In this document: in pieces, positions 1,201 through 54,809 of the stretch
How the letters are laid out: every line of letters starts with the position of its first letter
Position numbering within the stretch: position 1 is the stretch's first letter
NCBI GenBank assembly: GCA_913009835.1
Contig: CAJVXH010000001.1
Span: 1,992-65,991 of the forward strand
Length of the DNA: 64,000 nt
From: an uncultured bacterium
Lineage (GTDB): Bacteria; Electryoneota; Electryoneia; Electryoneales; Electryoneaceae
Direction: 5' to 3'
Position numbers and translations under genes: made by a program
Notes under the pieces: generated by a model
The model's database searches: none
Told to the model about the DNA's origin: nothing
The model's input: the letters and a program-made list of their open reading frames with translations, nothing else

Positions 1201-1238
1201 CTACTGGCTGCGGGCTGCTTGTTGTGAGCTGTGAGAAT

Positions 1239-1520
1239 ACAGGCCCGTGTTTGGAGTGCATCCGGTTATCCAGTTAACTCAGCCAGGAGATATGCCCCTG
1301 TGACCCGCCGTTTTTTTGGCGGTTCGCAGGGATCATTTAACGACTGTCCTGAGTCCTGATAAATCAAACAGGCACCTTGTAACTTGTGGATCAACCCTGC
1401 TATCGCCTGTGGCGGTAACAGGGGCATATTCATCGTCGGATAATCCACGACATAAATATCGTGGGCATAATGCAACCCCAGCTGAAGCAACTGGATAACC
1501 GGATGCTCGCAAACACGGAC
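1239..1520. repeat. Roughly 280-bp repeat element copy A, with terminal inverted repeats (gcatccggttatccag ... ctggataaccggatgc) and long-range internal complementarity
   Basis: Near-identical to the reverse complement of 15461-15742, seen by direct sequence comparison. The termini are complementary, and the internal gaatatgcccctg/caggggcatattc segments are complementary. Confidence 0.7.
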
Positions 1521-1708
1521 AACCGTCACCATTAGACACTTGTCTCATCCTTCATCGTTCATCGTTCATCCAAATCCGAGGATAAGCCGCGCTTGACGAG
1601 CAAGCACGGGCCTGTCTTTTCCTCCAGACTCCCGACTCAAACCCTCAAACAAAACAACCCGAACCAGAATTGGCTCGGGCTGTTGATAATCAATTTGTAG
1701 ATGGGTCG

Positions 1709-4700
1709 TTACCGCATCAGAACGACCTTCTGCGTCGTAGTCATCGGACCGGCAGTTACCTGCAGGAAGTAGACGCCTGAAGCGACACCTTCCGCCGTCC
1801 AGTTTAACGTGTGCGAACCGGCGGACATGTCATGGTTGGCCACTTCGACTACCTTCCGTCCAAGGATGTCAAAGACACGAAGCTGCACATCCGCAGCTGA
1901 AGCCAGGGTAATCGGCACTGCCACTGACGGGTTGAATGGGTTCGGATATGCATCACCAATGGCGAATTCAGATGGCAGGGCTACATCATCATCCACGCCC
2001 AATGAGCTGGCGTCAATGGTCAATGTCTCCGAGAAAGCATTTCCCTGGAGATACACTGACTCGATGACGTATTCGAAAATATCATCAGACGGCAGCGTCT
2101 CAGCCAAGGTTGTTTCCGTAATCCCGGTGGCGAGATCGTTGCCATCGCGGGTGACATTGAATTCTGTCATGCCGTTTGTGCCTGCAGATTCCATATGTCC
2201 AAAGACACCGCGAAGCATCAGATTACCTGTGTAGGTACCTGGGGCGGGGAATTGATTGAGAGGTACCCAATTCCAGGTGACTCCATCAACGCTGATGTAT
2301 AGTGACGCTCGATCAGCGGGATAGGTGGTAACATTATCCACATTCATCGAGGTCATACCATTTTCGAGCCATTCCAGACCAATCCAGACTTTGTCCCCTG
2401 ACTGGAATTCAAATCTGAACGGCATGTCGAAATCAAACCAACCCGCTTCCGTCGCCAACAGGGTTTCAGATGACCAGAAGACATCTCCCGGGACGGTCGG
2501 ATTATCCTCATACTCCAGAAGGACGAATCGGAAATCTCCAAAGCCCGCAGTCGAATTCAGCTCGACCCGAATGCCGCGCAATGAGGAGAAATCATCAACA
2601 TCGAACAGCTGTGCCGCTATGATACCGAGTGGCAATGATTCAACGAAGGACAACCCTGGCTGCTCTGCTTCACCGTCATCGTAGATAGTTTCCTGGGCAC
2701 GAGTTTGTTCCCACATCAATTCAATCTGCCGGGAAGGTTCGTCAATCACCCGGTAGCTGAAGAAACTCGCCGGTACTGGTTCGGCGAACAATACATCTAC
2801 CGTTGGGTTCTGTAGCGATTCACCCTCATTATATACAGGCACGACTTCGTATACGAAGGTACCAAATCCAGCTACATCATCACTGTAGGTCGTTTCTGTT
2901 GTCGTACCGATTTCACTGCCATCACGGACTACGCGGTAATGCTGGAACGTGTCTCCGCCCGGATGATCCCAATCCAGTTGGATGGTCTGATCACCATAAT
3001 TCGATTCACCGGTGAGATTTGTGACGGGTTCACGTGGATCAGCGGAATCAATCAAACCAGAGATCAGAAGGGTGTAGCTGACAGTCTCGGAAAGAGTGCC
3101 TTTGTGCGACACTGTCAGCTGGTAGTTTTCACCTGCTGGAGCCTCAATCCAAATCTGTTCTACGTTATCAACGATGTTATCACCAGTGGTAGCTGGAGTA
3201 TCTGGATTGTCTATCCCTCCCAGGACCCACGGATAATAGATGGTTCCGTTATCAGCATCTTCGAGACGGATATCGAGGTCGTTAACCAGAACCGGTGTCT
3301 GATCTCCGGGAATCGCGTGATTCGGACCCATCGGTTCGTTCCAGATGATGGTCACCCGGATATCTTCATCCTGAAACCTGGCCAGATCCTGAACATAAGT
3401 GGAGCCGTCCTCAAGTTCACGTTCCTGAATCGCCGGCGAGTTCACGGATGCCCAAGTGATATGGTCAGCGGCAGCCAACGCGTTCATCAATCCCCAGCCA
3501 TATCGATAATCCGGTCCATCCCAGCTTCCGCACTCATCAGCAGTGTGCAACACAAGACCGCGGAGTGTCGTCGACAACGGTTCTTCTCCGAAAACATTGT
3601 CATAGTGAATAAACAGCAGGTTCAATGTTCCCGCAGCTGAGGGACTCGACATCGAGGTGCCACTCATGGTGGCATAATCCGTGTTGTTAGCTTCACCGGT
3701 TGAACGAAGGTTGACACCATTTGCAACGATGTCCGGCTTGATTCGACCGTCATCCGTCGGGCCATAGCTGCTAAAACTGGACATCAATACTGAACCCGGT
3801 CCTGTGTAATTCAAGACGTCATTCACTGCACCGACTGTCAGGATATTTTTTGCTACCCCACGATATCCGATAGTATCGTAGCCAAGATCACCGCCATCTG
3901 GTTCTCGGGTCATCGTGCTCGTGCTACCGTTAGGGAGGCGGTGCAACCCTCCAGGTCCCGGACCTGTATCAGATCGATCGTTACCAGCCGATGCGCAAAT
4001 CGACAGGTAAGGATTGGCATGTGCTAAATTGTCCCAGACACGGCTGGTCTGGCTATTGTATTCGCCGAAATTGCGGTCGTAGGTCATGGTTGACAAACCA
4101 TACCAAACCCACGGTATCGCCCCGCCATCATATTCCCATCCCATCGGGGTGCCATATGAATGGTTTGTAATGTAAGTCCCACTAGCTGCAGCTGAAGCCA
4201 TTTCGGCCGTATCCTGATTCCAATCATAAGAATCAAGATATGCTTCATAGCTCATTCCCCGTGCGGATGCGCTGACACCGCCAGCGATCATGGTGCCGCC
4301 GACGTGTTGCGAGTGGAAATGAACTGCAGAGTTATCTCGATTATTAGCTCTCGGATAGCCGAGATTAACAAACTCCTGGTGGGTGGTCAGAAGAACTCCT
4401 GCATCCCACATAGCCATGTGCGCGGTGAAAGCACCGGTAATCGCATAACCGTTACCCGCTCCGGGATACAGCTGATCAGCACGGGAAGTAGCCGCGGCGT
4501 TTACGTTATCGATCTTGTAAAAAATCGGTTCTCCTTCAAGAGTAACACCCATCAATTCCATGCCGTTGTGCACATTATCAACGTAGATCTCTAGATTATT
4601 GTTCTTGACAAATTCCCAGAACTGTGGGCCACGCTGGATTTCGTAGGTTCTCTCAGCTTCCGCCTGAATCTCCCTCAATCCCTCATAATCGATTTCCGGT

Positions 4701-4804
4701 CGTGCAAAAGCGGATCCGGCGATCCAAGTCATCGCCAGCACTATAACCAGAATTCCAAATCCGGATCGCTGGATAATATTCTTGTACTTTGTCCAAATGT
4801 TCAT
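1709..4804 (-). CDS. Secreted S8 subtilisin-like serine peptidase with T9SS C-terminal sorting domain
   Basis: 1031 aa with an N-terminal signal peptide, the subtilase His-region HSQHVGGTMIAGG and Ser-region GTSMSSPSAAG, and a C-terminal Por/T9SS CTD-like tail (GVYFLQVTAGPMTTTQKVVLMR). Confidence 0.85.
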   Translation of the reverse strand: MNIWTKYKNIIQRSGFGILVIVLAMTWIAGSAFARPEIDYEGLREIQAEAERTYEIQRGPQFWEFVKNNNLEIYVDNVHNGMELMGVTLEGEPIFYKIDNVNAAATSRADQLYPGAGNGYAITGAFTAHMAMWDAGVLLTTHQEFVNLGYPRANNRDNSAVHFHSQHVGGTMIAGGVSASARGMSYEAYLDSYDWNQDTAEMASAAASGTYITNHSYGTPMGWEYDGGAIPWVWYGLSTMTYDRNFGEYNSQTSRVWDNLAHANPYLSICASAGNDRSDTGPGPGGLHRLPNGSTSTMTREPDGGDLGYDTIGYRGVAKNILTVGAVNDVLNYTGPGSVLMSSFSSYGPTDDGRIKPDIVANGVNLRSTGEANNTDYATMSGTSMSSPSAAGTLNLLFIHYDNVFGEEPLSTTLRGLVLHTADECGSWDGPDYRYGWGLMNALAAADHITWASVNSPAIQERELEDGSTYVQDLARFQDEDIRVTIIWNEPMGPNHAIPGDQTPVLVNDLDIRLEDADNGTIYYPWVLGGIDNPDTPATTGDNIVDNVEQIWIEAPAGENYQLTVSHKGTLSETVSYTLLISGLIDSADPREPVTNLTGESNYGDQTIQLDWDHPGGDTFQHYRVVRDGSEIGTTTETTYSDDVAGFGTFVYEVVPVYNEGESLQNPTVDVLFAEPVPASFFSYRVIDEPSRQIELMWEQTRAQETIYDDGEAEQPGLSFVESLPLGIIAAQLFDVDDFSSLRGIRVELNSTAGFGDFRFVLLEYEDNPTVPGDVFWSSETLLATEAGWFDFDMPFRFEFQSGDKVWIGLEWLENGMTSMNVDNVTTYPADRASLYISVDGVTWNWVPLNQFPAPGTYTGNLMLRGVFGHMESAGTNGMTEFNVTRDGNDLATGITETTLAETLPSDDIFEYVIESVYLQGNAFSETLTIDASSLGVDDDVALPSEFAIGDAYPNPFNPSVAVPITLASAADVQLRVFDILGRKVVEVANHDMSAGSHTLNWTAEGVASGVYFLQVTAGPMTTTQKVVLMR

Positions 4805-5082
4805 GACTTCTCCACCATGGCTCGTTAGCTCGTTTTAGACCCGCGCGATTGGGGCTATTGTTGTTTGTAATGTGTGGAATAGTAACTCTTACAGCTACCA
4901 AGATACTCCCAAGAGGTTGCTTGAGACAATCCACTGTGGACGAGTATTAAAAATCCACTCGGATGTGAATGTCCCGGTATATACCTCTATAACATGCGAG
5001 TAAAAAGTCGCCGCTCCAAATGCATAAAGCGTCCGGACTCTGTCCGGACGCTCGTTATCAGGATGAAATGTCTCTTGCTGAA

Positions 5083-5922
5083 TCAGGGCCGAGGACGTCT
5101 ATGGCTGCGTCCGTTATCCAGATTGATCATGAACTGATCACCATTATCCATCACCACCAGCGCCCAATTGGTCCCATCAAAGGTCGTGGTAGAACCTACT
5201 TCCAAGGTGAATGTGCGTGTCGTATGACCATTGGTCATCGTTTTCTCAAGCAAGGTGTGATGGTACACTGATCCGGAGAGGGGATATGGATGGTTTTCGT
5301 GGTCAACGTGGATGTTGATGTCAGTCGATTCCCAGTCGTGTAACGCATCCCAAGTCTGGAAATGATCTCTCCATCGTCCCTGCATCTCGCCAATTTCACT
5401 TCTTGATCCTGTGTCGTTTATGACATGGACAGTGTCTGTGGCAAGGATGTTGTCCATGGTCAGGAACGAGTACAATTCCACCTCTACCTGGCGAAAATCG
5501 TTATAGTGTCCACCTTCCATCGTCAACTCTCTACTCATCCGGACACTGGTCTCGGGATCATAAACTTCGTATGTGTTGTCTTCCGCATCGAAGAATGTCA
5601 CGTCAATCGTTGTCGTAAACCCGCGGTGGGTGAAAGTAGTGTCACGCAGTTGCGAAAAATCGCGATGATCGATTTGCGGATCGCCAGGATCGCCTGGAAA
5701 ATCCTGTGGCGGATTAGGTGCCCACATTGCGATCAAACCATCCACCGGATCCGTTATGGCGTAGGCAATGTCCTCGGCGATCATGGCATAATCGTCATCA
5801 TCTGGAATGTTGTTACTAAAATCAGATCCGGCAGGCGAACTGGTATCGGAACAACCTGCAACCAGTGCAAGTGCCATCATGATGACCAGTATGCTGAGAA
5901 TTCCTCTGCTCTTCATCTTCAA
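5083..5922 (-). CDS. Hypothetical lipoprotein
   Basis: 279 aa with a signal peptide and lipobox (LALVAGCSD). No recognisable catalytic motifs. Confidence 0.5.
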   Translation of the reverse strand: MKMKSRGILSILVIMMALALVAGCSDTSSPAGSDFSNNIPDDDDYAMIAEDIAYAITDPVDGLIAMWAPNPPQDFPGDPGDPQIDHRDFSQLRDTTFTHRGFTTTIDVTFFDAEDNTYEVYDPETSVRMSRELTMEGGHYNDFRQVEVELYSFLTMDNILATDTVHVINDTGSRSEIGEMQGRWRDHFQTWDALHDWESTDINIHVDHENHPYPLSGSVYHHTLLEKTMTNGHTTRTFTLEVGSTTTFDGTNWALVVMDNGDQFMINLDNGRSHRRPRP

Positions 5923-6045
5923 TATCCTCCACTTTGTCTTTTAATCACGGCAATCTACTGATATTCTTTTAACCTCGCAAGCGCAGGTTATTGGTTCATG
6001 ACACACGGCAGGAAAAACCTCATCCTGCCGCACAACTATTCTGCA

Positions 6046-6657
6046 TCATCGACCCAGAGGGCAGAATCCGGAATTCATTCCTCTCCCCTGGCCTACGCCA
6101 TGGGGTCCGAATCCACCAGATTGGTAACGGTTGCCATAACCCATCCCGGGTCCCTGGCCTGTTCCTCGTCCCCGGCCAGTGCGATTAAGATTGCCCTCAC
6201 TTCTTTCTTTTGCCGCCTGGGCGTGACGAATGCCGAGTTCTTCCCACTGTTCGTCCGTAAGAATCTCTTGCATCTGTTCTTGTTGTGAGAGGTGGTTCCG
6301 TCCCATCTCCAGCCTCATTTCATCCATCCTCTTTTGAATTACTCCGAGACGTTCCCGGTTTGCATCAGTGTCTTCCGCCAGCTTTATGAACTCCTCACGC
6401 AACTCATTTTGCTCTCTCTGCATCTTGATCTGCTTCAGCTCAATGTCCTTCTGCATGTCAAGAATTCGTTCGAGTTGACTGTCAGTCAAATCTGGCAGGT
6501 TGGCGATGCCTTGCCCCATACCGAATCCTGGACCGTTGCCAAATCCTCCGCCGTTTCCGTGTCCTCCTCCGTTCATGGGCTGGGCGTCGGCAGTCGCTGC
6601 AAACATGAATCCCGCCATGATTACCGCTATAATCATGAGTTTTGAAACGTCTTTCAT
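6046..6657 (-). CDS. Periplasmic Spy/CpxP-family (LTXXQ motif) protein, Gly-rich
   Basis: 203 aa with a signal peptide (MIIAVIMAGFMFAATADA), two LTXXQ-like motifs (LTDSQLERIL, LTDEQWEEL), a coiled-coil segment and Gly-rich termini. Confidence 0.55.
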   Translation of the reverse strand: MKDVSKLMIIAVIMAGFMFAATADAQPMNGGGHGNGGGFGNGPGFGMGQGIANLPDLTDSQLERILDMQKDIELKQIKMQREQNELREEFIKLAEDTDANRERLGVIQKRMDEMRLEMGRNHLSQQEQMQEILTDEQWEELGIRHAQAAKERSEGNLNRTGRGRGTGQGPGMGYGNRYQSGGFGPHGVGQGRGMNSGFCPLGR

Positions 6658-6805
6658 CTTCCCATCTCCTTCAGTTCAGCTTCTATGTGCTGTGGTTGAA
6701 TGTATGTGCGCGTATCACGCTTCAGATAATGGACGCGCAAAGTGGAGATGGGTTTAATCGAGGGGAGAGTTCAGGGGGAGACTACTCTGAATCGAACAGT
6801 TTTTT

Positions 6806-7340
6806 CATCCTGAATGACATGCAAGTCATCGCTGAACGAAGTGAAGGATCTCGTCTTTGACCTGCATTTCATCCCAGACATAAATGTCTGGGGCACGAAA
6901 TCGCGTCATCCTGAACGAAGTGAAGGATCTCGTCTTTGACCTGCATTTCATCTCAGACATAAATGTCTGGGGCACGAAATCGCGTCATCCTGAACGAAGT
7001 GAAGGATCTCGTCTTTGACCTTCATTTCATCCCAGACATAAATGTCTGGGGCACGAAATCGCGTCATCCTGAACGAAGCGAAGGATCTCGTCTTTGACCT
7101 GCATTTCATCCCAGACATAAATGTCTGGGGCACGAAATCGCGTCATCCTGAACGAAGTGAAGGATCTCGTCTTTGACCTGCATTTCATCCCAGACATAAA
7201 TGTCTGGGGCACGAAATCGCGTCATCCTGAACGAAGTGAAGGATCTCGTCTTTGACCTTCATTTCATCCCAGACATAAATGTCTGGGGCACGAAATCGCG
7301 TCATCCTGAACGAAGTGAAGGATCTCGCCTTTAACATTTT
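6806..7340. repeat. Tandem array of about 6.5 copies of a 79-bp unit
   Basis: Unit gtcatcctgaacgaagtgaaggatctcgtctttgacctgcatttcatcccagacataaatgtctggggcacgaaatcgc. Unit starts at 6905, 6984, 7063, 7142, 7221 and 7300, exactly 79 bp apart, with degenerate first and last copies. Each unit contains the palindrome cccagacataaatgtctgggg. Confidence 0.9.
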
Positions 7341-7402
7341 GAGAAAAAATGGATTGTCTGAGGAAATACCACGATTACTTGATGTGTTGAGTGAAGCTCT
7401 AC

Positions 7403-10342
7403 CTAGTCCTCAGCATTAGGATCGCCATCGAGGAACCAGGACAAGGCTTTGAAGAGGCTATCATAGTTGGAAAAGACTTGCGGCTTGACCGGCAACGAAT
7501 CAACCATGATGCGTCCCCAGCGCGATTGAACCAGCCGCGGATCGCATAGGATAGCTACTCCATAATCATCAGTTCGTCGTATCAGGCGTCCCAATCCCTG
7601 CCGCAAACGGAGTATCGCCTCAGGAACAGTGTACTCGATGAACGGATTCCCACCCTCGGCCTTGATCTTCTCTGAACGTGCTTCGACCAGCGGATCATTG
7701 GGAACGTGGAATGGCAGCTTGGCAATTATCAGAAGCTCGAGCGATTCACCGGGAACGTCTATCCCTTCCCAGAAGGAGTCCACTCCAAAGAGAACGGACT
7801 TTCGTTCCTCCCGGAAGCGGTCCAGCATTTCAGCCTGAGAGGCGCCCACTCCCTGCGCAAACGTGCTCCATCCCTGCCGTTCGAGCATTGGGGAAGCCTG
7901 ATCGTATGCGTCTCCCAGCATTTTCTGGCTGGTAAACAGGATCAGCGAACCGGCATCCAAGTCAATGGGCAGATTCTGGGCGAGCCGGGCAACGCCTTCG
8001 ACGTATTCGTCGAGATTTCCCTTTGGCACACCCAGATAATCGACCACCGCGATAAACATCTGGTCGGCCATCTTAAACGGTGTCTGGTAGATAACTCCCT
8101 TGGCATCTGACAGTCCCAGCCTTTTCCGCATGAAATCAAATTTCTGCTTGACGGTGAGGGTGGCTGAGGTCAATACGATCGACTCAACTTTGGGGTATAG
8201 CAGCTTTTGCAGGACAACACTCACATCCAGTGGTGCGGAGTTAAGGGTAACACCGGCCCGTGCATCTCTGCCGATACTATACCATAACACCGTGTTTTCC
8301 GGTTCAGAGCCAGTCAACAGTATGAAGGCATCCGCAATAGCTTTCAGCTCCACGCGAATGGATTTGAGCCTGCCGATAACATCATCACCTTCGATGAGCG
8401 GATCTTCTGCTTCCGAAAGAATTTCAAGCAGTTTGTCCAGTTCACGGAGTACACTCGAGAACGCTCGTTGATGGGCGAGGATGGCATCCTTAATCGGCTC
8501 AAATACTGATTCGCCGCTGATATACCGAACAGAGCGTCCGTAGTAGCGGTTCTTACTTTTTGATTCGGCCTCTTGTTTTATCGAAAGCAGTCCGTACAAT
8601 TCGCCATGAAAATGATCGCCGGTGCGATGAATGGTGGTGATTGCGTCAACCAGACGATCAATCGGACCGGGCTCATCGACGTTTTTACGTTCGAGCGGCG
8701 TTTCGAGCAGAGGTTGCAACGCTCTCAGGGCCATCAACAAACCGGGCCGTTTGGCTGAAGCATCGTGCATCTGGGTGAGCAGATTGCGCAACGGTACATA
8801 GTGGTAGTTCAATCCCAAGTGTTTCGCAGCGATGTCCTCGATGTGATGGGCTTCGTCAATTATCAGACGGTCGTATTCGCCCAGCACCGCTCCATCACTG
8901 GCCAGATCGCTGAACAGCAGGGCATGGTTGATCAACACCACGTCCGCGCCGAGTGCTGACATCCTGATACGATGCAGGAAGCATCCTTCGCTAGCACGAC
9001 AAACTCGATTGGAGCAGAATCCGGAATCGGCGGACAATCGCGGCCACAAACCGCGCACCAGCGACTGACGCACTCCCGGTGCTTCGTTCACATCACCTGT
9101 TTTGGTACGATTCAGCCAGCGCACGATTGGTAACAACGCCAATCGGTCTGTAGGTTCGAGCGCCTCCGGTTCATTGACCAGAGAGTCATAGCGCCTTTTG
9201 CAGATGTAATTGCCACGTCCCTTAAGCAGGACTGCACGAACATCTCCACTGAAAGCCGCCTCGAGATACGGCAGATCCTTCTCGAAGAGTTGATTTTGCA
9301 GGTGACGAGTGTTGGTTGAGATGACAACTCGTCCGCCTCCGGCGCGAGCGTGCATCAGGGCGGGAAGCAGGTAGGCTAGGCTTTTCCCGGTACCGGTACC
9401 CGCTTCACAGATTAACTGTCCACCGTTTTCAATGGTTTCGTGGACATCCCAGGCCATGTCAGCCTGGCCATGTCGCATCTCGTAACCGGGCACCTGCTTG
9501 GCGATGAGACCATTCTCATCGAAGAACGCGGCATAAGTGTCAGCATCAATCTGTTCCGGCTTGTCAATAGCTTCACGTGTCTGACCGAGCGTGGAAAAAT
9601 CTCCGATGCGATTGTCAGGCAAATTATTGGGGGTCCACACGCCTTCGGGGCCGGGTCCGATGGTAAGCAGTCCATCAATGATGGAACCGAGGGCGAAATT
9701 GGTCTGTCCCAGAATCCTCAGCATCTCGCGCAATTCGCCGGGTGGCAGACGGCGAGCTCGTGCCAGCAACTCGAGCAGGACTTTTCCTGTGGCGTCAGCA
9801 TCATCGGTTGCACGGTGGGCGTTTGACAGAGCAACACCCAATTGACGCGCCATCGCCCCCAGCCCGAATCGACTGAATTCTATGGGAAAGAGGCTGCGTG
9901 CAACGTTCAAAGTGTCATAGACTTCGCCCGGTGGGGCCATCGGCGCGTCTTCCGGAATTCGCAATAATTCAGCATCGAGGAAATCCAGGTCAAACTTTAC
10001 ACTCTGCCCGAGGATGGGGGATTCACCGAAGAAGGCAATAATCTCCTCAGCGAGATCCTCGAAGCGTTTTTCATTCTCCAGGTCGCTGTCGGTGATACCG
10101 GTGAGGCGGGTAATAAATGCGGTCAGCTTTTCGTCCACATGGAGCAATTTGCTGCAACGTTCGGTCTCTTCCCCACCCACAAACCTGACCGCACCGAATT
10201 CAATCATGCGGCAGGATTTGGCGTCGAGCCCTGTTGTCTCAGTGTCGAAGGCAACGAAGTCTGCCAGCCCGAGTCGGGCGAGCTCCTCAGGTGTCAGTGG
10301 CGCAGGTTCGGGCAGGCTCAGTGTCAACTCCCAGGGATGCAA
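7403..10342 (-). CDS. dinG: Bifunctional DnaQ-like 3'-5' exonuclease / DinG-family ATP-dependent DNA helicase
   Basis: 979 aa. N-terminal Exo I motif FVAFDTETTGLD; helicase motif I ICEAGTGTGKSLAYLLP; DEAH box IIDEAHHIED; C-terminal helicase domain. Confidence 0.85.
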   Translation of the reverse strand: MHPWELTLSLPEPAPLTPEELARLGLADFVAFDTETTGLDAKSCRMIEFGAVRFVGGEETERCSKLLHVDEKLTAFITRLTGITDSDLENEKRFEDLAEEIIAFFGESPILGQSVKFDLDFLDAELLRIPEDAPMAPPGEVYDTLNVARSLFPIEFSRFGLGAMARQLGVALSNAHRATDDADATGKVLLELLARARRLPPGELREMLRILGQTNFALGSIIDGLLTIGPGPEGVWTPNNLPDNRIGDFSTLGQTREAIDKPEQIDADTYAAFFDENGLIAKQVPGYEMRHGQADMAWDVHETIENGGQLICEAGTGTGKSLAYLLPALMHARAGGGRVVISTNTRHLQNQLFEKDLPYLEAAFSGDVRAVLLKGRGNYICKRRYDSLVNEPEALEPTDRLALLPIVRWLNRTKTGDVNEAPGVRQSLVRGLWPRLSADSGFCSNRVCRASEGCFLHRIRMSALGADVVLINHALLFSDLASDGAVLGEYDRLIIDEAHHIEDIAAKHLGLNYHYVPLRNLLTQMHDASAKRPGLLMALRALQPLLETPLERKNVDEPGPIDRLVDAITTIHRTGDHFHGELYGLLSIKQEAESKSKNRYYGRSVRYISGESVFEPIKDAILAHQRAFSSVLRELDKLLEILSEAEDPLIEGDDVIGRLKSIRVELKAIADAFILLTGSEPENTVLWYSIGRDARAGVTLNSAPLDVSVVLQKLLYPKVESIVLTSATLTVKQKFDFMRKRLGLSDAKGVIYQTPFKMADQMFIAVVDYLGVPKGNLDEYVEGVARLAQNLPIDLDAGSLILFTSQKMLGDAYDQASPMLERQGWSTFAQGVGASQAEMLDRFREERKSVLFGVDSFWEGIDVPGESLELLIIAKLPFHVPNDPLVEARSEKIKAEGGNPFIEYTVPEAILRLRQGLGRLIRRTDDYGVAILCDPRLVQSRWGRIMVDSLPVKPQVFSNYDSLFKALSWFLDGDPNAED

Positions 10343-10481
10343 AACGTTGATATAAATAACCCGGTCTCAGTTTGAATCAGTAGCCAAGAGACCGGGTTTC
10401 AAAGTTCAAGTTAGCTATTACTCACTGTTCAGCAGTCCATCTCACGTTCGGTTTTCGTGAGGCCAGCGCTTCGTCGAGACG

Positions 10482-12011
10482 TCAGATCGGAGTAGTATAA
10501 GGTGCATCGTGAAGAAATTCAGGCTTCTCTTCCGCTTCCTTCGCGATCTGACGCATGATGTCTACGAACCGATCCAAAGTTTCCTTTGTCTCGGTCTCAG
10601 TTGGTTCTATCATCATGGCTTCGTGCACGATCTGCGGGAAATAAATGGTTGGTGCGTGTATCCCGAAGTCGAGCAGACGTTTGGCGATATCTAATGCGCG
10701 AGCACCCTGCTTCGCTTGTTTGTCAGCGCTCAATACCACCTCATGCAGGCAACGATCAGGAAATGGTATATCGTAATCACTCTGTAGCAGGATTCTGAGA
10801 TAATTGGCATTGATGATCGCGGCTTGGGACACTTCCTGCAGCCCATCCTTACCATTGGCCAATATGTATGCGTAAGCTCGTGCCAAGATCAGAAAGTTAC
10901 CGAAATATCCTTGCATTTTTCCGATGGATTTGGGACGCGCCCAGTCGTGGAAAAAGATATTCTCTTCTTTACGTACCACAGGCGTTGGCAGATACGGTTC
11001 CAGTTTTTCGACGCAGCAAACTGGACCAGCTCCCGGACCTCCACCTCCATGTGGTGTGGAAAAAGTTTTGTGGACGTTAATGTGCATCACATCGAAGCCC
11101 ATCTTTGCCGGGGTGGTTATACCGAGCAGTGCGTTGAGGTTGGCACCATCCATATACATGAAGCCGCCAGCACGATGCACGATCTTCGAAATCTCCCTGA
11201 TGTTGCTCTCAAAAATGCCGAGGGTATTGGGATTGGTGATCATCATTCCGACGAGCCTTTCGTCGGCCACCTTGCGAACTTCTTCCGTGTCGACGGTGCC
11301 GTCTGGACCAGATTTCAATTCGATAACTTCGCAACCGGCAGCGTGAATCGTGGCTGGATTGGTGCCATGGGCAGAATCAGGGATGATGACTCGTTTCCTG
11401 ATGTTATCATTCTGGCTCGTATGATACTTCCGCATCATCAGCAGACCTGTCAGTTCTCCTGATGCGCCAGCTGGTGGTTGCAGGGTTACCCCAGCGAATC
11501 CGGTGATCGCCTTCAACTGTTCGCCGAGTTCATAGAGCACCTCGAGCGCTCCCTGGCAGAAGCGAGTCGGGGTGAAAGGGTGCAATTCCGACAGGTGGGG
11601 ATCGTTGACGATCTTCTCGTTCACCTTCGGATTGTATTTCATCGTGCATGAACCGAGTGGGTAAAAGTCGCGGTCCACATGGTGGTTTAGATTCGAGAGC
11701 CTGTGAAAATGGCGAATGATTTCGTTCTCGCTGACTTCGGACAGCGGTGCATCCTCCGCGCGCCGCAAGCCTATCGGTAAGGGCTCAGCGAGCGGAACAT
11801 CGGACTTAGGCAAGCGCACACCGCGCTGATCTGGAACAGACAACTCGTAGAGTAGTTTCTCCGGCATTGCATTTTGCATCTGTGGAAAGTCCTTCACCCA
11901 ATGGTATTGAAGATGGACGCTCGTCCCGTCCTGTTCAGACTCGTGCTTCAATCGAACTCGGAATATACGTCTCTTTACCCTGCCTCGTAGAGGGAGAGGG
12001 TGCATCTTCAT
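10482..12011 (-). CDS. gcvPB: Glycine dehydrogenase (decarboxylating) subunit 2, glycine cleavage system P-protein C-terminal subunit
   Basis: 509 aa with FYPLGSCTMKYNPK and the PLP-lysine region HINVHKTFSTPHGGGGPGAG, both diagnostic of GcvPB. Confidence 0.9.
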   Translation of the reverse strand: MKMHPLPLRGRVKRRIFRVRLKHESEQDGTSVHLQYHWVKDFPQMQNAMPEKLLYELSVPDQRGVRLPKSDVPLAEPLPIGLRRAEDAPLSEVSENEIIRHFHRLSNLNHHVDRDFYPLGSCTMKYNPKVNEKIVNDPHLSELHPFTPTRFCQGALEVLYELGEQLKAITGFAGVTLQPPAGASGELTGLLMMRKYHTSQNDNIRKRVIIPDSAHGTNPATIHAAGCEVIELKSGPDGTVDTEEVRKVADERLVGMMITNPNTLGIFESNIREISKIVHRAGGFMYMDGANLNALLGITTPAKMGFDVMHINVHKTFSTPHGGGGPGAGPVCCVEKLEPYLPTPVVRKEENIFFHDWARPKSIGKMQGYFGNFLILARAYAYILANGKDGLQEVSQAAIINANYLRILLQSDYDIPFPDRCLHEVVLSADKQAKQGARALDIAKRLLDFGIHAPTIYFPQIVHEAMMIEPTETETKETLDRFVDIMRQIAKEAEEKPEFLHDAPYTTPI

Positions 12012-12358
12012 ACATCTTCTCTTATAATCCTTCTCAGCAAATAATTATTGCGAGGCCGCTTCAATTCTTCGTTGACTCACCGGATGCATCCCTGTATATT
12101 CAGGGGTTCATTTTTAACCGGTCCACGTAGGGCCGGTTTCGTTTGCGGGGAAGGTAACGGAGATTACAGGGAGAGGTGTCGTGGGGGCAAGCTGTTGTAG
12201 TAGTGGCCAGTATTTGCTTCTTCCGGTATCCTATCTAAACCTGTCTGGTCTGCATTCTTCCTCTTACACGTTGTAATCGCACAACAGTCAACGCCAGCCC
12301 TTGCGAAAAGATTTTCGGGTTTGGTCAAAGAGCGCCTGTACGGCGCCGAACAGACGCA

Positions 12359-14455
12359 ATGGTTCGAATGAAAGGTTCCCATCTCTTCCGCACCCTGCTG
12401 ATTCTCGTGCTTGTGGTACTCGCAGTGGTTAATTTGTATCCAACCTTCCGAGGCACTCAGCTCGAAGACATTTTGCAGGCCAAACTACAGCGGATCAGCG
12501 ACGCTACAGGCACTCCCGTCAACATCCTGCGTGAAGACATTTTCCGCTTCGATGTCGACCTCGCTTATCGTATTCGTCATCAGGATGGAATTTCCGATGC
12601 TGACAAGGATGAGCTAGTCGATCTCGTGGAAGAACTTCGCACAGGGTTTTTCGAGGAGTTTGACCGGGTCAGTAGTAAATCGATCAAGCTCGGCTTGGAT
12701 TTGCAAGGTGGTATGCACCTGATTCTCGAGGTGAGCCTTGTCGATCTGATGGATCGTCTTGCGAAAAACACTGATGCGACTTACGAGGAGATCTCGCAAG
12801 CCATCAGGGTTATTCTGGATGAAGATCCTGCCTCGGAATTTGACCAGGTTGTGATGCAACAGTTCTCTGATCACAACATACCGATGGCGCGCTATTTCGG
12901 CGATCCTCGGCAGAGTGACCGTGAGATCGTCCGGATGTTGCAACAGCAAGCTGAGGAAGCTGTCGATCTTACTCTGACTAAGCTGCGCAACCGTATTGAT
13001 GAGTTCGGCGTCAGTGAACCATCAATCACACGGCAGGGCGCCCGTCGAATTGTTGTGGAGTTGCCGGGTGTGCAAGACCCAACCCGTGCCCGCAATCTGA
13101 TTGGACGGACAGCGTTGCTGGAGTTCCAGCTAGTTGCAGACGCCGAAATTACCGCACGTGTCGTCCGCGACCTTGACAATTTCCTTCTTGAGAGCGACGG
13201 TAATGTCGACCTCCTGACCGATGATGCCAGTACCGAAGAGGAACTGGTGGCTGAAGATGCCGCCGGAGTTGTTGAGGATGACGGCGCCTTGGCCACTGAC
13301 AGCCTTGCCGATGGCGAGGACATCACAGGTACTGAACGTCTCTTCGGTGAAGACGTCGAGGGCATTGGAGATACGGCCAGCCGTTTCGATGCCAGCCGTC
13401 CCTTCAGCAGTCTGCTGAGCCTCTTTGGTCGACAGATGGTAGTGCTCAAGGTTGATCGCGATCGCGTCGAGCGCATTCTCGGACGCCAGGAAGTCCAGGC
13501 GGTGATACCCCCCGACTACGAATTTCTCTGGGGACACAGCGAACAGACGGATCAACAGGGACGCGCGTTCTATTACTTGTTCCTGCTCAAGGAACGTGCA
13601 GAGCTGACCGGTAACGAACTATCTGATGCTCAAGTAACTATTGGCAGCGGCTCCGCCGATCCGACAACTGCTGGTCAGGCAATTGTCACTTTAACCATGA
13701 AGCGTGAAGGTGCGCGCCTGTTCGCCCGAGTTACTGAGAACAACATCGGCGAACAATTGGCAATCGTTCTGGACGACAAAGTCCACATGGCACCCAACAT
13801 CCGTTCGCGTATTCCAGATGGTCGCGCTATCATCGAAGGTCTTGACAGCGTTGAAGAAGCAGACGACCTGGCGATTGTTCTTCGTGCTGGTGCGTTACCC
13901 GCCCCGGTAAATATCATTGAAGAACGGACCGTCGGCCCGAGCCTTGGTAAAGATTCAATCCAGGCTGGAATGTTGAGCGCCATCTCAGGATTGCTTCTGG
14001 TCATGATCTTCATGGTCATATATTATCGCGGCAGCGGTTTGATCGCCGACATCGTCCTTATGCTGAACATCATTTTCCTGATGGCGGTGCTTGCCGGGTT
14101 CGGATTCACCTTGACATTGCCGGGTATTGCGGGCATCATTCTTACGATCGGTATGGCGGTGGATGCCAACGTGCTGATCTATGAACGAATCCGTGAAGAA
14201 CTTCGAGCTGGCAAGACAGTGTGGAACGCTGTGAGGAATGGTTATGACCGAGCGCTGGTCACCATTCTGGACGCGAACATTACGACCATGATCGCAGGTA
14301 TCATCCTCTACCAGTTTGGTACAGGTCCGATCCGTGGTTTCGCATTAACCCTGATGATTGGTATCGCCGCGTCGGTGTTCACCGCACTTGTTGTCAGCCG
14401 TGCGATTTTCGACTACATCACCGCCCACTGGTCGGTGAAAAAGCTGAGTATCTAA
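12359..14455 (+). CDS. secD: Protein translocase subunit SecD
   Basis: 698 aa with an N-terminal TM segment, LGLDLQGGMHLILEV, a large periplasmic domain, and C-terminal 6-TM SecD/SecF signature segments. Confidence 0.85.
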   Translation: MVRMKGSHLFRTLLILVLVVLAVVNLYPTFRGTQLEDILQAKLQRISDATGTPVNILREDIFRFDVDLAYRIRHQDGISDADKDELVDLVEELRTGFFEEFDRVSSKSIKLGLDLQGGMHLILEVSLVDLMDRLAKNTDATYEEISQAIRVILDEDPASEFDQVVMQQFSDHNIPMARYFGDPRQSDREIVRMLQQQAEEAVDLTLTKLRNRIDEFGVSEPSITRQGARRIVVELPGVQDPTRARNLIGRTALLEFQLVADAEITARVVRDLDNFLLESDGNVDLLTDDASTEEELVAEDAAGVVEDDGALATDSLADGEDITGTERLFGEDVEGIGDTASRFDASRPFSSLLSLFGRQMVVLKVDRDRVERILGRQEVQAVIPPDYEFLWGHSEQTDQQGRAFYYLFLLKERAELTGNELSDAQVTIGSGSADPTTAGQAIVTLTMKREGARLFARVTENNIGEQLAIVLDDKVHMAPNIRSRIPDGRAIIEGLDSVEEADDLAIVLRAGALPAPVNIIEERTVGPSLGKDSIQAGMLSAISGLLLVMIFMVIYYRGSGLIADIVLMLNIIFLMAVLAGFGFTLTLPGIAGIILTIGMAVDANVLIYERIREELRAGKTVWNAVRNGYDRALVTILDANITTMIAGIILYQFGTGPIRGFALTLMIGIAASVFTALVVSRAIFDYITAHWSVKKLSI

Positions 14456-14458
14456 GCC

Positions 14459-15379
14459 ATGCTTGAGATCTTTCGTGACGCATCCTACGACTTCCAAGGC
14501 AAGCGCCGTGTCGCATTTATAATCAGCGCTATTCTGATCGTTATTGGAATTATTGCCACTGTTGTCCGTGGCGGCCCGAACTATTCGATTGACTTCACTG
14601 GCGGTTTGCAGTCAGTGCTCCGCTTCGAAACCCCGGTTGATCAAAGCGATGTTCGTGATGCCGTTCACGATCTGGGTTACACCGATGCCGAAGTCAAGAC
14701 GATCACCGGTCGTGGCCAGCAGGATGTGATGATTCGAATTCCGATTCTCACTGGTCATGAGAGTGTCAGTGATGAGCTCCAAGCCGGATTACAAGCGCAC
14801 TTCGCGGACAATCCAATCACGGTTCGGAGCGTTGAAACAGTCGGCCCAAAGATTGGGCGCGAGTTGCGTAACTCAGCTATTCTCGCGATTGTTGCGTCCA
14901 TGTTCTTTATCGTCATCTACATCAGCTGGCGGTTTAAGTATCGTTACGCTATAGCTGCCCTGGCGGCGCTGATACATGACGTTCTGATCGTATTCGGGCT
15001 GTTCTCGATTCTCAACCTCCAGATCAGTCTCGCTGTGATCGCCGCGTTCCTGACAATCGTCGGTTACTCGCTGAACGATACCATCGTGGTGTTTGACCGC
15101 GTCCGTGAGAACGTTAGAAAATTACGTACCAAGGGATTCCAGGATCAGATTAACATCTCGATCAACGAGACTTTGTCGCGTACCGTGTTGACTTCGGGTA
15201 CAACGTTTATCGTTGTGTTTATCCTGTATTTGTTCGGTGGCGCTGTTCTCCATGATTTTGCTTTCGCACTGATGGCTGGTGTGATCGTGGGTACCTATTC
15301 TTCGATTTTCGTTGCGAGCCCAATTCTCATTGAGTGGGCTAATGCTCGTCCGGAAAAACGTTCGAAGAAACAGTTCTAA
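14459..15379 (+). CDS. secF: Protein translocase subunit SecF
   Basis: 306 aa immediately downstream of secD, with IDFTGG and the SecF TM pattern. Confidence 0.85.
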   Translation: MLEIFRDASYDFQGKRRVAFIISAILIVIGIIATVVRGGPNYSIDFTGGLQSVLRFETPVDQSDVRDAVHDLGYTDAEVKTITGRGQQDVMIRIPILTGHESVSDELQAGLQAHFADNPITVRSVETVGPKIGRELRNSAILAIVASMFFIVIYISWRFKYRYAIAALAALIHDVLIVFGLFSILNLQISLAVIAAFLTIVGYSLNDTIVVFDRVRENVRKLRTKGFQDQINISINETLSRTVLTSGTTFIVVFILYLFGGAVLHDFAFALMAGVIVGTYSSIFVASPILIEWANARPEKRSKKQF

Positions 15380-15400
15380 GTGTGTTGATGGTTTCCGTCT

Positions 15401-15429
15401 GCCCGGGGAACCTCCCGGGCATTTTTTTG
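15401..15429 (+). terminator. Rho-independent terminator after secF
   Basis: GC hairpin gcccggggaacctcccgggc followed by a T7 run. Confidence 0.6.
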
Positions 15430-15460
15430 CTTTGCATGTACGTACATTCAGTGAGCGAGA

Positions 15461-15742
15461 AAACAGGCCCGTGTTTGCTCGCATCCGGTTATCCAGTTGC
15501 TTCAGCTGGGGTTGCTTCTTGCCCCAGACATTTATGTCTGGGATGATCCGACGATGAATATGCCCCTGTTACCGCCGCAGGCGATAGCAGGGTTGATCCG
15601 CAAGTTACAAGGTAGGTGTTTGTTTTCTCAGGACTAAGGACCACAGTTGAATAATCCCTGCGAACCGCCAAAAAGACGGCGGGTCACAGGGGCATGTCAA
15701 ATAGCTGAGTTATCTGGATAACCGGATGCTCGCAAACGCAGA
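15461..15742. repeat. Roughly 280-bp repeat element copy B, inverted relative to copy A
   Basis: Reverse complement aligns with 1239-1520 over nearly its full length. Contains the cccagacatttatgtctggg palindrome shared with the 79-bp tandem unit. Confidence 0.7.
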
Positions 15743-15861: not shown

Positions 15862-17160
15862 ATGGCAGTTACCGCCATTGTAGGATGTCAGTGGGGTGAC
15901 GAAGGCAAGGGTAAGATCGTCGACCTGCTCAGCGAGCCAGCGGATATCGTTGCACGTTACCAGGGTGGTCCGAACGCCGGCCATACGGTTGTACACGAAG
16001 GTGAAGAGACTATTCTTCACCAGATTCCTTCCGGTATTCTGCATCCCAATGTGATCTGTCTTCTGGGTAGTGGATCTGTAATAGACCCACGCATCCTTTT
16101 CGAGGAGATTGAACAACTCGAAAGCCGGGGTGTGAAGGTCAAAGGGCGTTTGTTCATCAGCCATAAAGCCCACTTGATCATGCCCTACCATCGTGCCATC
16201 GATGAAGCCGCTGAACATGCTGCTGGCAAGTCCAGGATTGGAACAACCGGCAGAGGTATCGGTCCAGCTTATACGGACAAGTATCAACGTTGCGGTATTC
16301 GAATCGTAGATCTGCTCGACCGCGATCACCTCGAGAAGAAGTTGCGGGCAAATCTCGCCGACAAGAATAAACTGCTGCGTGACTATTACAAGAGCAGCGA
16401 ACTCGATGTTAACCGTATCGTTGATGAGTACATCGACTTCGACAGAAAAGCCGATCCCTACATCAAGGATGTATCCGTATTTCTGGACGACGCAATTGCT
16501 GAAGGCAAGAATGTACTTCTTGAGGGCGCTCAAGGCACTCTGCTGGATGTTGATCACGGTACCTACCCATTCGTCACCAGCTCAAATCCGAGCGCTGGTG
16601 CAGCCGCGACAGGACTTGGTATTGGTCCACGTCGAATCACGCACGTTGTGGGCGTATTGAAGGCCTATACAACTCGCGTTGGTAACGGTCCCTTCCCCAC
16701 CGAACTGGACGAACCATTGCAATCTCAGTTCCGCAAATGGGGCGGCGAATATGGTGCGACTACGGGCCGTGCACGTCGATGTGGCTGGCTGGATCTGGTG
16801 ATCGGACGCTATTCAGCACGTATCAATGGTCTGGATTCATGGGCGATTACCAAGCTGGATGTACTGAGCCAGCTGGACGAGATCCATGTGTGTACCTCTT
16901 ACAAGTATAAGGGACGTGAGGTCAGACATTTCCCGGCGGAGCCTTGGGTTTTGGACGAAGTACAGCCGGTGTATGAAACCTTGCCTGGTTGGAAGGAAGA
17001 CATCAGCGATGTGCGTCATTATGACGATCTGCCAGCATCATGCCGTTCCTATCTCGATTTCATTAAAGATCAGACTGGAGTACCAATAGGTCTGATCAGT
17101 GTCGGCGCGGAACGTGGCGCCTATATACCGCTTTCGGACGAGGTCTTGGGGTTGGCATAG
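15862..17160 (+). CDS. purA: Adenylosuccinate synthetase
   Basis: 432 aa with an N-terminal GCQWGDEGKGKIVD P-loop, GPNAGHTV, and the full-length PurA pattern. Confidence 0.95.
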   Translation: MAVTAIVGCQWGDEGKGKIVDLLSEPADIVARYQGGPNAGHTVVHEGEETILHQIPSGILHPNVICLLGSGSVIDPRILFEEIEQLESRGVKVKGRLFISHKAHLIMPYHRAIDEAAEHAAGKSRIGTTGRGIGPAYTDKYQRCGIRIVDLLDRDHLEKKLRANLADKNKLLRDYYKSSELDVNRIVDEYIDFDRKADPYIKDVSVFLDDAIAEGKNVLLEGAQGTLLDVDHGTYPFVTSSNPSAGAAATGLGIGPRRITHVVGVLKAYTTRVGNGPFPTELDEPLQSQFRKWGGEYGATTGRARRCGWLDLVIGRYSARINGLDSWAITKLDVLSQLDEIHVCTSYKYKGREVRHFPAEPWVLDEVQPVYETLPGWKEDISDVRHYDDLPASCRSYLDFIKDQTGVPIGLISVGAERGAYIPLSDEVLGLA

Positions 17161-17162
17161 AC

Positions 17163-17199
17163 ATTGTGTCATCCTGAACGAAGTGAAGGATCTCATAGT
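17163..17199. repeat. Solo copy of the 37-bp A-module of the 79-bp repeat unit
   Basis: gtcatcctgaacgaagtgaaggatctcatagttgacc matches the first half of the tandem unit. Confidence 0.5.
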
Positions 17200-17358
17200 T
17201 GACCTTACTATCAGCCCAAGAAAATATGTCTCGGAGCACTTTGAACGGACTCAATTGTTTGTGATATTCGCAGCCGTTTGGTAGAGACAAGATGTTGTCC
17301 AGGTACGTTGAGTTGTGTTGATTCTCCAGATTTGACATGTGTGAGACATTTGTAGTTT

Positions 17359-17431
17359 GAGGATGTAGCTCAGTTGGTAGAGCAGGGGCCTTTTAAGCCC
17401 AAGGCCGAGGGTTCGAGTCCCTCCATCCTCA
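17359..17431 (+). tRNA. tRNA-Lys (anticodon TTT)
   Basis: Hand-folded cloverleaf: acceptor gaggatg/catcctc, D-stem gctc/gagc, anticodon loop cttttaa (TTT), T-arm gaggg-ttcgagt-ccctc, discriminator A. No encoded CCA. Confidence 0.85.
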
Positions 17432-17531: not shown

Positions 17532-18629
17532 TTGTTACATGAGGTGACCATGGCAACGATACGCAAACGTACTACCAGAGACGGGTCTGTTTCCTACCAC
17601 GTTCAGATTCGGAAAAAGGGATTCCCCACCGAAACCACGTCCTTCTCCAATTTGACTCATGCCAAACGCTGGGCAAACCAAACTGAAACTGATATGGATG
17701 AAGGGCGTTACTTCAGAAACACTGAGGCGAAACGTCACACGGTCGAAGAAGCAATTGACCGATATCTGAAAGAAGTCCTTCCAAGGTATAAGGACCAAGC
17801 AAAACCATTGGTCCATTTGCGATTCTGGAAAGAGCGGATCGGGCACATGCTGCTGTCCGAACTGAAGACCGCAAAGGTTGTTCAGGAACGTGATCGTCTT
17901 CTTCGTGATGACAACCATCCAGGTGCAAAGATGAATCGTTCCTTCGGTCCTGCTACAGCGAACAGATACACCACCTCCCTCTCCCGTGTGCTGTCAGTAT
18001 GTGCTCGTGACTGGGGCTGGCTCGAGCAATCCCCGATGCGAGGCTTCAGGAAGCTGAAGGAAACACGTGGTCGTGTTCGCTATCTGTCCGATGATGAACG
18101 AGCTCGCATTCTGGCAGTTTGCCAAAGCAGTTCAAATCCCGACCTTTACCTTGCAGTCATACTCGCACTTTCAACCGGAGCTCGAAGAAGCGAACTGTGG
18201 AATCTCCGCTGGTCACAGATCGACTTGGCTGGTCAAAAAATCATCTTGGACGAAACAAAGAACGATGAGCGTCGCGTGCTTCCTATTTTTGGCAAGGCTC
18301 ATGAACTCCTGACCGAACGATCCATTACGCAACGCCGTCTTGATACCGATCTCCTCTTCCCTGGTCGAACAAATCCCAAGATTCCACAAGACCTCACTCA
18401 TCCATGGCAACGCGCTATCCAGGAAGCGAAAATCGTGGACTTTCGCTGGCACGACCTCCGCCACAGTGCAGCAAGCTACCTCGCCATGTCTGGAGCAACA
18501 CCTACTGATATCGCGGCAATCCTTGGTCACAAAACCTTGCAGATGGTCAAACGGTATGCACACCTCAGTGAACCACATACTGCAAGTGTGGTAGAGCGGA
18601 TGAACAAAAAATTTATGGGTGAATCGTGA
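17532..18629 (+). CDS. int: Tyrosine-type site-specific integrase
   Basis: 365 aa with a C-terminal catalytic region WHDLRHSAASYLAMSGATPTDIAAILGHKTLQMVKRYAHL (R..HxxR..Y pattern). The likely true start is MATIRKR at 17550. Confidence 0.9.
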   Translation: MLHEVTMATIRKRTTRDGSVSYHVQIRKKGFPTETTSFSNLTHAKRWANQTETDMDEGRYFRNTEAKRHTVEEAIDRYLKEVLPRYKDQAKPLVHLRFWKERIGHMLLSELKTAKVVQERDRLLRDDNHPGAKMNRSFGPATANRYTTSLSRVLSVCARDWGWLEQSPMRGFRKLKETRGRVRYLSDDERARILAVCQSSSNPDLYLAVILALSTGARRSELWNLRWSQIDLAGQKIILDETKNDERRVLPIFGKAHELLTERSITQRRLDTDLLFPGRTNPKIPQDLTHPWQRAIQEAKIVDFRWHDLRHSAASYLAMSGATPTDIAAILGHKTLQMVKRYAHLSEPHTASVVERMNKKFMGES

Positions 18630-54762: not shown

Positions 54763-54809
54763 GGGTCTTTTAAGCCCAAGGCCGAGGGTTCAAGTCCCTC
54801 CATCCTCAC
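54763..54809 (+). repeat. attR: partial duplicate of the tRNA-Lys 3' end
   Basis: gggtcttttaagcccaaggccgagggttcaagtccctccatcctcac matches tRNA positions 28-73 with 3 mismatches. Confidence 0.6.

Follow-up and report, generated by a model that had tools for sequence, protein, structure and literature searches.

What are the two similar sequences of roughly 280 bp that face each other in inverted orientation across 14 kb of an uncultured bacterial genome, and has the DNA between them been inverted? Both lie in a 64-kb stretch of contig CAJVXH010000001.1 (hereafter the window; GC content 51%). A first-pass annotation of this DNA had described them as a near-exact inverted pair (1239-1520 and 15461-15742) with 33-bp terminal inverted repeats (TIRs), representing either a miniature inverted-repeat transposable element (MITE) or a highly structured RNA, and potentially able to invert the intervening segment. 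Our analyses confirm that observation in part and support part of its interpretation, namely the MITE. We conclude that the two copies, here called A and B, probably belong to a new, previously undescribed MITE family and are nested in the loops of hairpins that resemble repetitive extragenic palindromes (REPs).

Structure of the Inverted Pair

The pair itself is real, with arms at 1251-1518 and 15469-15736 that are reverse complements over 268 nt. However, at 87% complementarity it is not near-exact, and the boundaries previously assigned to it mix two nested things, an element of 247 bp and the arms of a host hairpin (Table 1). Across the 247-bp element, copies A and B differ at 30 of 247 positions (88% identity) with no gaps, and no identical run exceeds 34 nt. 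Perfect matches to the 16-mer GCATCCGGTTATCCAG number four in the window, one at each end of each copy, while the chance expectation is 0.58 matches at three or fewer mismatches. The internal long-range complementarity reported earlier, ATATGCCCCTG...CAGGGGCATAT, is present in A and in B, and each copy as a whole folds into one long hairpin. In the plus orientation, A and B have outer flanks that repeat each other directly, sharing GTGAGC..GAGAAWACAGGCCCGTGTTTG on the left and CTCGCAAAC on the right, while their interiors are inverted; similarity changes from direct to inverted inside the four identical 16-mers.

We set the ends of the element at CATCC...GGATG. The TIRs are ~26 bp long (CATCCGGTTATCCAGTTNNCTCAGCY), with 3-4 mismatches, and this is the part of the 33-bp TIR described earlier that belongs to the element itself. 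Its outer third is the stem of the target hairpin, because this flank also occurs alone, without the element, and folds as a hairpin. The two copies differ internally at one module: the palindrome of copy B had been linked to a 79-bp tandem repeat elsewhere in the window, and the link holds over a 31-nt stretch that includes CCCAGACATAAATGTCTGGG and is 97% identical between the two, while copy A has a different yet still paired version at this position, CCACGACATAAATATCGTGG.

The hairpins that surround the copies belong to a repeat of their own, with the consensus ACAGGCCCGTGYTTG-CTYG(T)-CAARCRCGG; the arms around the MITE loop read ACAGGCCCGTGTTTG-CTCG-CAAACRCGG. With its 5' extension the full unit is (GTGAGC..GAGAAA)ACAGG-CCCGTGYTTG-CTCG-CAARCRCGG, and it is this extension that makes the unit asymmetric. 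We found four such units, three in the window and one in a relative, all of which are intergenic and have a 9-bp stem. Two of them are empty, containing neither the core nor the interior of the element: one at 1580-1636 (-) of the window, with its hairpin at 1587-1636, the other at 4074-4101 in a related genome (L027/28/30). Both empty units, as well as sites A and B after removal of the insert in silico, fold into a 9-bp stem with a loop of 4-5 nt. At site A, two units face each other in inverted orientation ~65 nt apart, in the manner of a REP doublet. A stretch at 1580-1624 that resembles a third, degenerate TIR is the empty unit at this site and not a MITE end. No gene for a REP-associated tyrosine transposase (RAYT) was found in the window.

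Table 1. Coordinates of the two element copies, their host hairpins and adjacent terminators in the window.
Feature	Position	Strand	Remarks
Left arm and 5' extension, hairpin unit of copy A	1227..1254	+	GTGAGCTGTGAGAATACAGGCCCGTGTTTG; direct (+/+) repeat of 15451-15477
Left junction, copy A	1255..1258	+	AGTG; differs from right junction, target site duplication decayed or rearranged
MITE copy A	1259..1505	+	247 bp, termini CATCCGGTTATCC...GGATAACCGGATG; 88% identical to reverse complement of copy B
Left TIR, copy A	1259..1284	+	CATCCGGTTATCCAGTTAACTCAGCC; 3-4 mismatches to reverse complement of 1480-1505
Right TIR, copy A	1480..1505	-	
Right junction, copy A	1506..1509	+	CTCG, identical to loop/duplication tetranucleotide at copy B
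Right arm, hairpin of copy A	1510..1519	+	CAAACACGGA; without the element the site folds into 9-bp stem, 4-nt loop
Empty third hairpin unit	1580..1636	-	GGAGGAAAAGACAGG CCCGTGCTTG CTCGT CAAGCGCGG; inverted relative to copy-A unit; 0/500 shuffles
Terminator-like hairpin downstream of subtilase gene	1653..1684	-	Conserved in relatives; marks ancestral part of the spacer
Terminator-like hairpin of secF	15400..15421	+	Conserved in relatives
Left arm and 5' extension, hairpin of copy B	15451..15477	+	GTGAGCGAGAAAACAGGCCCGTGTTTG
Left target site duplication, copy B	15478..15481	+	CTCG
MITE copy B	15482..15728	-	247 bp, inverted relative to copy A
31-nt module in copy B	15516..15546	-	97% identical to hairpin of 79-bp tandem unit
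Right target site duplication, copy B	15729..15732	+	CTCG
Right arm, hairpin of copy B	15733..15742	+	CAAACGCAGA, partly decayed

Related Elements and the Target Site

A scan for the terminal pattern in one genome per GTDB species returned three matches, all in a single Calditrichaeota metagenome-assembled genome (MAG) from Suakin Deep in the Red Sea. These elements are ~290 bp long and 97% identical to one another, and the similarity fades ~10 nt beyond their termini; one of the three is truncated by a contig end. Their termini are those of the window copies (CATCCGGTTATCC..CTCAGCC), while their interiors are unrelated, and the genome has a GC content of 66% compared to the 51% of the window. 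All nine ends examined, from the window and from the MAG, have an identical 13-nt TIR core. Dispersed copies number two in the 64-kb window and at least three in the MAG, and the combination of the same termini with an unrelated interior would follow the usual pattern of MITE families that share a transposase.

The junctions of these copies carry a signature of transposition. At copy B there is a perfect 4-bp target site duplication (TSD), CTCG/CTCG, in which the loop of the reconstructed hairpin, one tetranucleotide, is present twice. The junctions of the complete Suakin Deep copies are TATG/TATG (L003) and TGTG/TTTG (L001), and over the four copies 12 of 16 TSD positions match (binomial P = 4e-5, uncorrected for the choice of boundary). 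As these junction repeats are direct and not inverted, they are not an extension of the TIR. Directly outside the 4-nt junction, on both sides, the four complete copies read ..TT(G/C) at each of their eight flanks, as does the truncated copy at its one available flank, so that the target has the palindromic form yTTG-N4-CAAr (yTTG-NNNG-CAAr).

Other collections added no further members. With a looser terminal pattern, the JGI metagenomes and IMG/VR gave 16 metagenome matches and one viral match, which are attributable to chance, being located in coding sequence and having no partner TIR. The MITE interior has no similarity to the corresponding loci of the relatives, and literature searches with the terminal sequences, with the GTCATYCTGAAC motif and with Calditrichaeota plus MITE found nothing relevant. 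Sequence identical to the window and including copy B is present in an ENA contig (run DRR093004), and copy B is also found in a contig of an NCBI MAG. Exact protein matches assign the window to an uncultured marine bacterium that NCBI lists as bacterium BMS3Bbin04 / GCA_011043795.1, and the closest relatives with a name are Calditrichaeota. A Logan contig from SRR7787007 (L023) enters the MITE terminus of copy B and stops after 11 nt, at window position 15492, which fits a repeat-induced assembly break.

Orthologous Sites and the 14-kb Segment

In four related genomes, whose SecF proteins are 83-86% identical, the gene order of this region is kept: MazG, a metalloenzyme, a subtilase (-), two small genes (-), a helicase (-), gcvP (-), secD, secF and purA. 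Intergenic DNA is too diverged in these genomes for a base-exact alignment of empty sites. The secF-purA spacer is 111-116 nt in the four relatives and 483 nt in the window. Similarly, the spacer between the metalloenzyme and subtilase genes is 508 nt in the window versus 82 nt in L032 and 230 nt in L033/34, in the latter of which it holds a different small element. Within these two spacers only the terminators are conserved across the relatives, and at both sites the related genomes are without the MITE.

Since gene order and orientation are unchanged in relatives that do not have the copies, the 14-kb segment is in its ancestral orientation. The proposed inversion is thus not supported, as a related genome that is without both copies has the same gene order and orientation. 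In the ENA contig and the NCBI MAG contig, the only other assemblies to include copy B in full, its orientation is that of the window; neither they nor the Logan contig span both copies. Recombination between the copies is conceivable given identical runs of up to 34 nt; there is no sign of its occurrence.

Proposed Origin of the Two Copies

These data are best explained by a 247-bp non-coding MITE that has ~26-bp TIRs, would generate a 4-bp TSD, and is presumably mobilized in trans by a DDE-type transposase encoded outside the window, as none is encoded in the 64 kb. The earlier MITE reading is borne out by the small size of the element, the absence of coding potential (see below), the TIRs, the 4-bp TSD, the apparently multiple copies and the orthologous sites of relatives that have no element. 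Transposition would have been by a cut-and-paste or a copy-in mechanism, with a target preference for the palindrome yTTG-NNNG-CAAr, which in the source genome would be supplied by the loop of the REP-like hairpin. Two hairpin units, both in the plus orientation, would each have taken up one MITE, in opposite orientations. Inserts of opposite orientation in hairpins of the same orientation account for a TIR that looks 33 bp long, for flanks that are direct around an inverted interior, and for the folding of each copy into one long hairpin. The element appears to have no cellular function.

Several observations weigh against this explanation. Copy A is without an intact TSD (AGTG versus CTCG) and has one extra base on its left side. 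For the Suakin Deep targets no convincing hairpin fold is obtained, so loop targeting, which rests on the two window cases, may be a mere preference for palindromic sequence. The relatives' spacers are without the hairpin unit as well as the MITE, and each site would therefore need two successive insertions, unless hairpin and MITE travelled as a single composite. The window contains neither an autonomous element nor a transposase that goes with these termini; scans of the GTDB representatives, JGI metagenomes and IMG/VR for a longer element with these termini, using a pattern that also required the inner TCAGC motif, gave no match; and a plasmid collection queried with the full element and a 35-nt TIR yielded nothing or chance-level matches only. 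Finally, the five copies examined, two from the window and three from one MAG, are a small sample.

Alternative Explanations

The 60-aa open reading frames (ORFs) at 1316-1498 (+) and 15489-15671 (-) had been suspected to be an artefact of nucleotide identity, and this is what they are. Between A and B there are 13 non-synonymous versus 5 synonymous codon changes, the differences are distributed 7/6/10 over the codon positions, so there is no coding signature, and a six-frame pseudo-protein of both copies had no homolog among 5.8 billion proteins.

A structured non-coding RNA gene of ~250-280 nt, possibly residing on a mobile element and with the apparent TIR as its closing helix, would be in keeping with the far greater fold stability of both strands compared with shuffled sequence (z about -10), with an A+B consensus fold of 79 pairs in which none is broken and two, in one hairpin, are compensatory, and with G-U pairs that favor the A(-)/B(+) strand, the direction of the upstream gene in both cases. 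However, z-scores of this size are to be expected for either strand of any nested inverted repeat, and a consensus fold of two sequences is biased because it keeps only pairs that both copies can form. For this reason single copies were folded and confronted with the substitutions of the other copy. On the plus strand 14-16 of the 30 differences lie in stems and break 8-10 of the 12-14 pairs they touch, on the minus strand 9-10 of 16-17 touched pairs break, and stems are only marginally depleted of changes (P 0.02-0.4); the perfect stem conservation of the consensus fold did not survive this test. Moreover, the compensated hairpin of B is identical to the hairpin of the tandem array over the 31-nt block (97%), which points to an exchange of modules, and not paired point mutations, as its probable source. 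The second lineage keeps the termini and not the interior, copy B has no promoter-like site, and Rfam 15 gave no match at the gathering threshold for the whole window and none at permissive thresholds for copy A and one Suakin Deep copy (best E-value 0.05, to an animal miRNA model). Based on these findings we do not uphold the conserved RNA of ~280 nt proposed earlier and regard an RNA gene as highly improbable; in a less likely variant of the structure-guided targeting considered below, the 247-nt interior would yield a structured RNA on expression and benefit from a long closing helix that the host hairpin provides.

Two further explanations treat the flanks and the interior as parts of one system. 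The mobile unit might be the whole composite of hairpin arms, core and interior, i.e., a mosaic akin to bacterial interspersed mosaic elements (BIMEs) or REP doublets forming hairpins (REPINs), moved by a RAYT/IS200-type enzyme or by recombination, in place of a DDE-type MITE that entered an existing hairpin. The joint absence of hairpin unit and MITE from the relatives' orthologous spacers is in favor of such a composite, as are the doublet-like arrangement of the units at site A and the modules common to different repeat families (the 31-nt hairpin shared with the 79-bp unit, and the GTCATTCTGAAC element nested in a Suakin Deep copy). We nevertheless consider it unlikely, based on the fact that A and B differ in how the interior is oriented with respect to the asymmetric hairpin flanks, that empty hairpin units exist, that direct 4-bp repeats are located exactly at the core termini, and that the Suakin Deep copies have the core without the hairpin of the window. 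Alternatively, the 16-bp cores GCATCCGGTTATCCAG could be recombinase sites of an inverton whose 217-bp interior flips, so that A and B would be its two states; this would agree with the same outer flanks around an inverted interior, with the similarity switch inside the four 16-mers, and with a tyrosine recombinase gene 1.8 kb from copy B. Against this, the flanks are accounted for by independent hairpin units that are also found empty, and a direct duplication of 4 bp at the termini is a mark of transposition that an inverton would not be expected to show; these two findings are the main grounds for rejecting the inverton. Further, copy A is situated between two convergent 3' ends, beyond a terminator, where there is nothing to switch, both other assemblies show copy B in the same state, no convincing outward promoter is predicted (none in B, one weak site in A), and the nearby integrase is part of a tRNA-Lys island that has att repeats of its own. 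We thus regard an inverton as extremely improbable.

Comparison with Known Systems

Examples of bacterial MITEs include the Correia elements (Correia repeat enclosed elements, CREE) of Neisseria, Nezha of cyanobacteria and MIC231 of Bacillus cereus, and several DDE families could account for a TSD of 4 bp. The window element is like bacterial MITEs in being non-coding and intergenic, within their size range of 100-400 bp, bounded by TIRs and a short TSD, and located near terminators, as they often are. It also shares with them the folding into a long hairpin and the different interiors behind the same termini, and probably the presence of several diverged copies. In contrast to the known families, its termini (CATCCGGTTATCC...) match nothing in Rfam, the literature or the plasmid collection, and few copies are detectable.

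Insertion into the loops of REPs, or palindromic units, is a property of the insertion sequences (ISs) IS1397 and ISKpn1 of the IS3 family, which are autonomous, have TG...CA ends and a transposase gene, and produce 3-4-bp duplications. Both window copies similarly occupy the 4-nt loop of a REP-like hairpin and have palindromic target flanks, and copy B has a 4-bp junction repeat; however, the window element is a non-coding sequence of 247 bp and the Suakin Deep targets are not clear hairpins. By analogy with IS1397, it is possible, though in our view doubtful, that the element and its unseen transposase recognize the hairpin loop in a structure-guided manner. The host hairpin has the features of REPs, BIMEs and REPINs, as it is a short imperfect palindrome with an asymmetric extension, dispersed between genes, present in one inverted doublet and found in mosaics with other small repeats, but it differs from them in that only four units are known. 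With invertons, such as the fim switch and the invertible promoters of Bacteroides and Clostridioides, the element has in common an interior of ~220 bp between inverted repeats and both orientations relative to similar flanks; unlike them it has a TSD and independent flanks, site A offers no gene to control, and two states have not been seen at one locus.

Other Repeats and Genomic Context

Small palindromic repeats of different families are interspersed throughout the region. The 79-bp tandem array (6753-7463) consists of ~7 units, which are 97-100% identical in its middle, and is located between the 3' end of the helicase gene and the next gene; the orthologous spacer is 144-200 nt in the relatives, and a solitary, diverged unit is present directly after purA (17160-17234). 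Each unit has two hairpins, ATCCT..AGGAT and CCCAGACATAAATGTCTGGG, the second of which is also present in MITE copy B. An additional family of small repeats has the termini GCGTCATTCTGAAC...GTYCAGAATGACG (L033, 7995-8110; L003, 391-561). Nested inside Suakin Deep MITE L003 is an insert of ~170 bp with the ends GCGTCATTCTGAAC...GTTCAGAATGACGC, and the ortholog of site A in a relative (L033, 7995-8110) is occupied by an element of ~120 bp with the ends of this nested insert. The start of the window's 79-bp tandem unit resembles this family (6903-6930) and reads GCGTCATCCTGAACGAAGTGAAGGATC.

Next to MazG, the window has an ORF of the metalloenzyme superfamily (871-1200) that encodes 109 aa and matches only the C-terminal part of the Pfam model. 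The orthologs in the relatives, directly after MazG, have 349-364 aa, and the gene in the window appears to have lost its 5' two-thirds. Beyond purA, the 3' 22 nt of a tRNA-Lys gene (17359-17431) recur with one mismatch at 54787-54808, bracketing a low-GC island of ~37 kb that opens with a tyrosine integrase gene (17532-18629). Its cargo includes a DUF3987 protein, a STAND-type NTPase of 1980 aa, HEPN_Swt1 plus DUF499, DUF1156 and a SNF2/ResIII helicase, and it looks like a defence island. The purA-tRNA site of the relatives has different cargo or none.

Biological Significance

The main value of these findings is for annotation, as the two stretches are best recorded as insertions of a mobile element and not as genes, RNAs or an inversion switch. 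The MITE insertions would also explain assembly breaks at this locus. In addition, they provide a clean case of a small repeat that lies within the loop of a second one, a situation that can mislead the calling of element boundaries from TIRs. If the hairpin loop is indeed recognized, the Calditrichota would possess nested repeats on two tiers, with one mobile family colonizing another. The element is an ordinary kind of bacterial repeat; however, as far as we could find, with no matches in the literature, it is the first MITE-type family to be described in this uncultured Calditrichota-related lineage of deep-sea sulfide deposits. That its termini are common to a distant, GC-richer relative from the Red Sea implies a shared, as yet unseen transposase.

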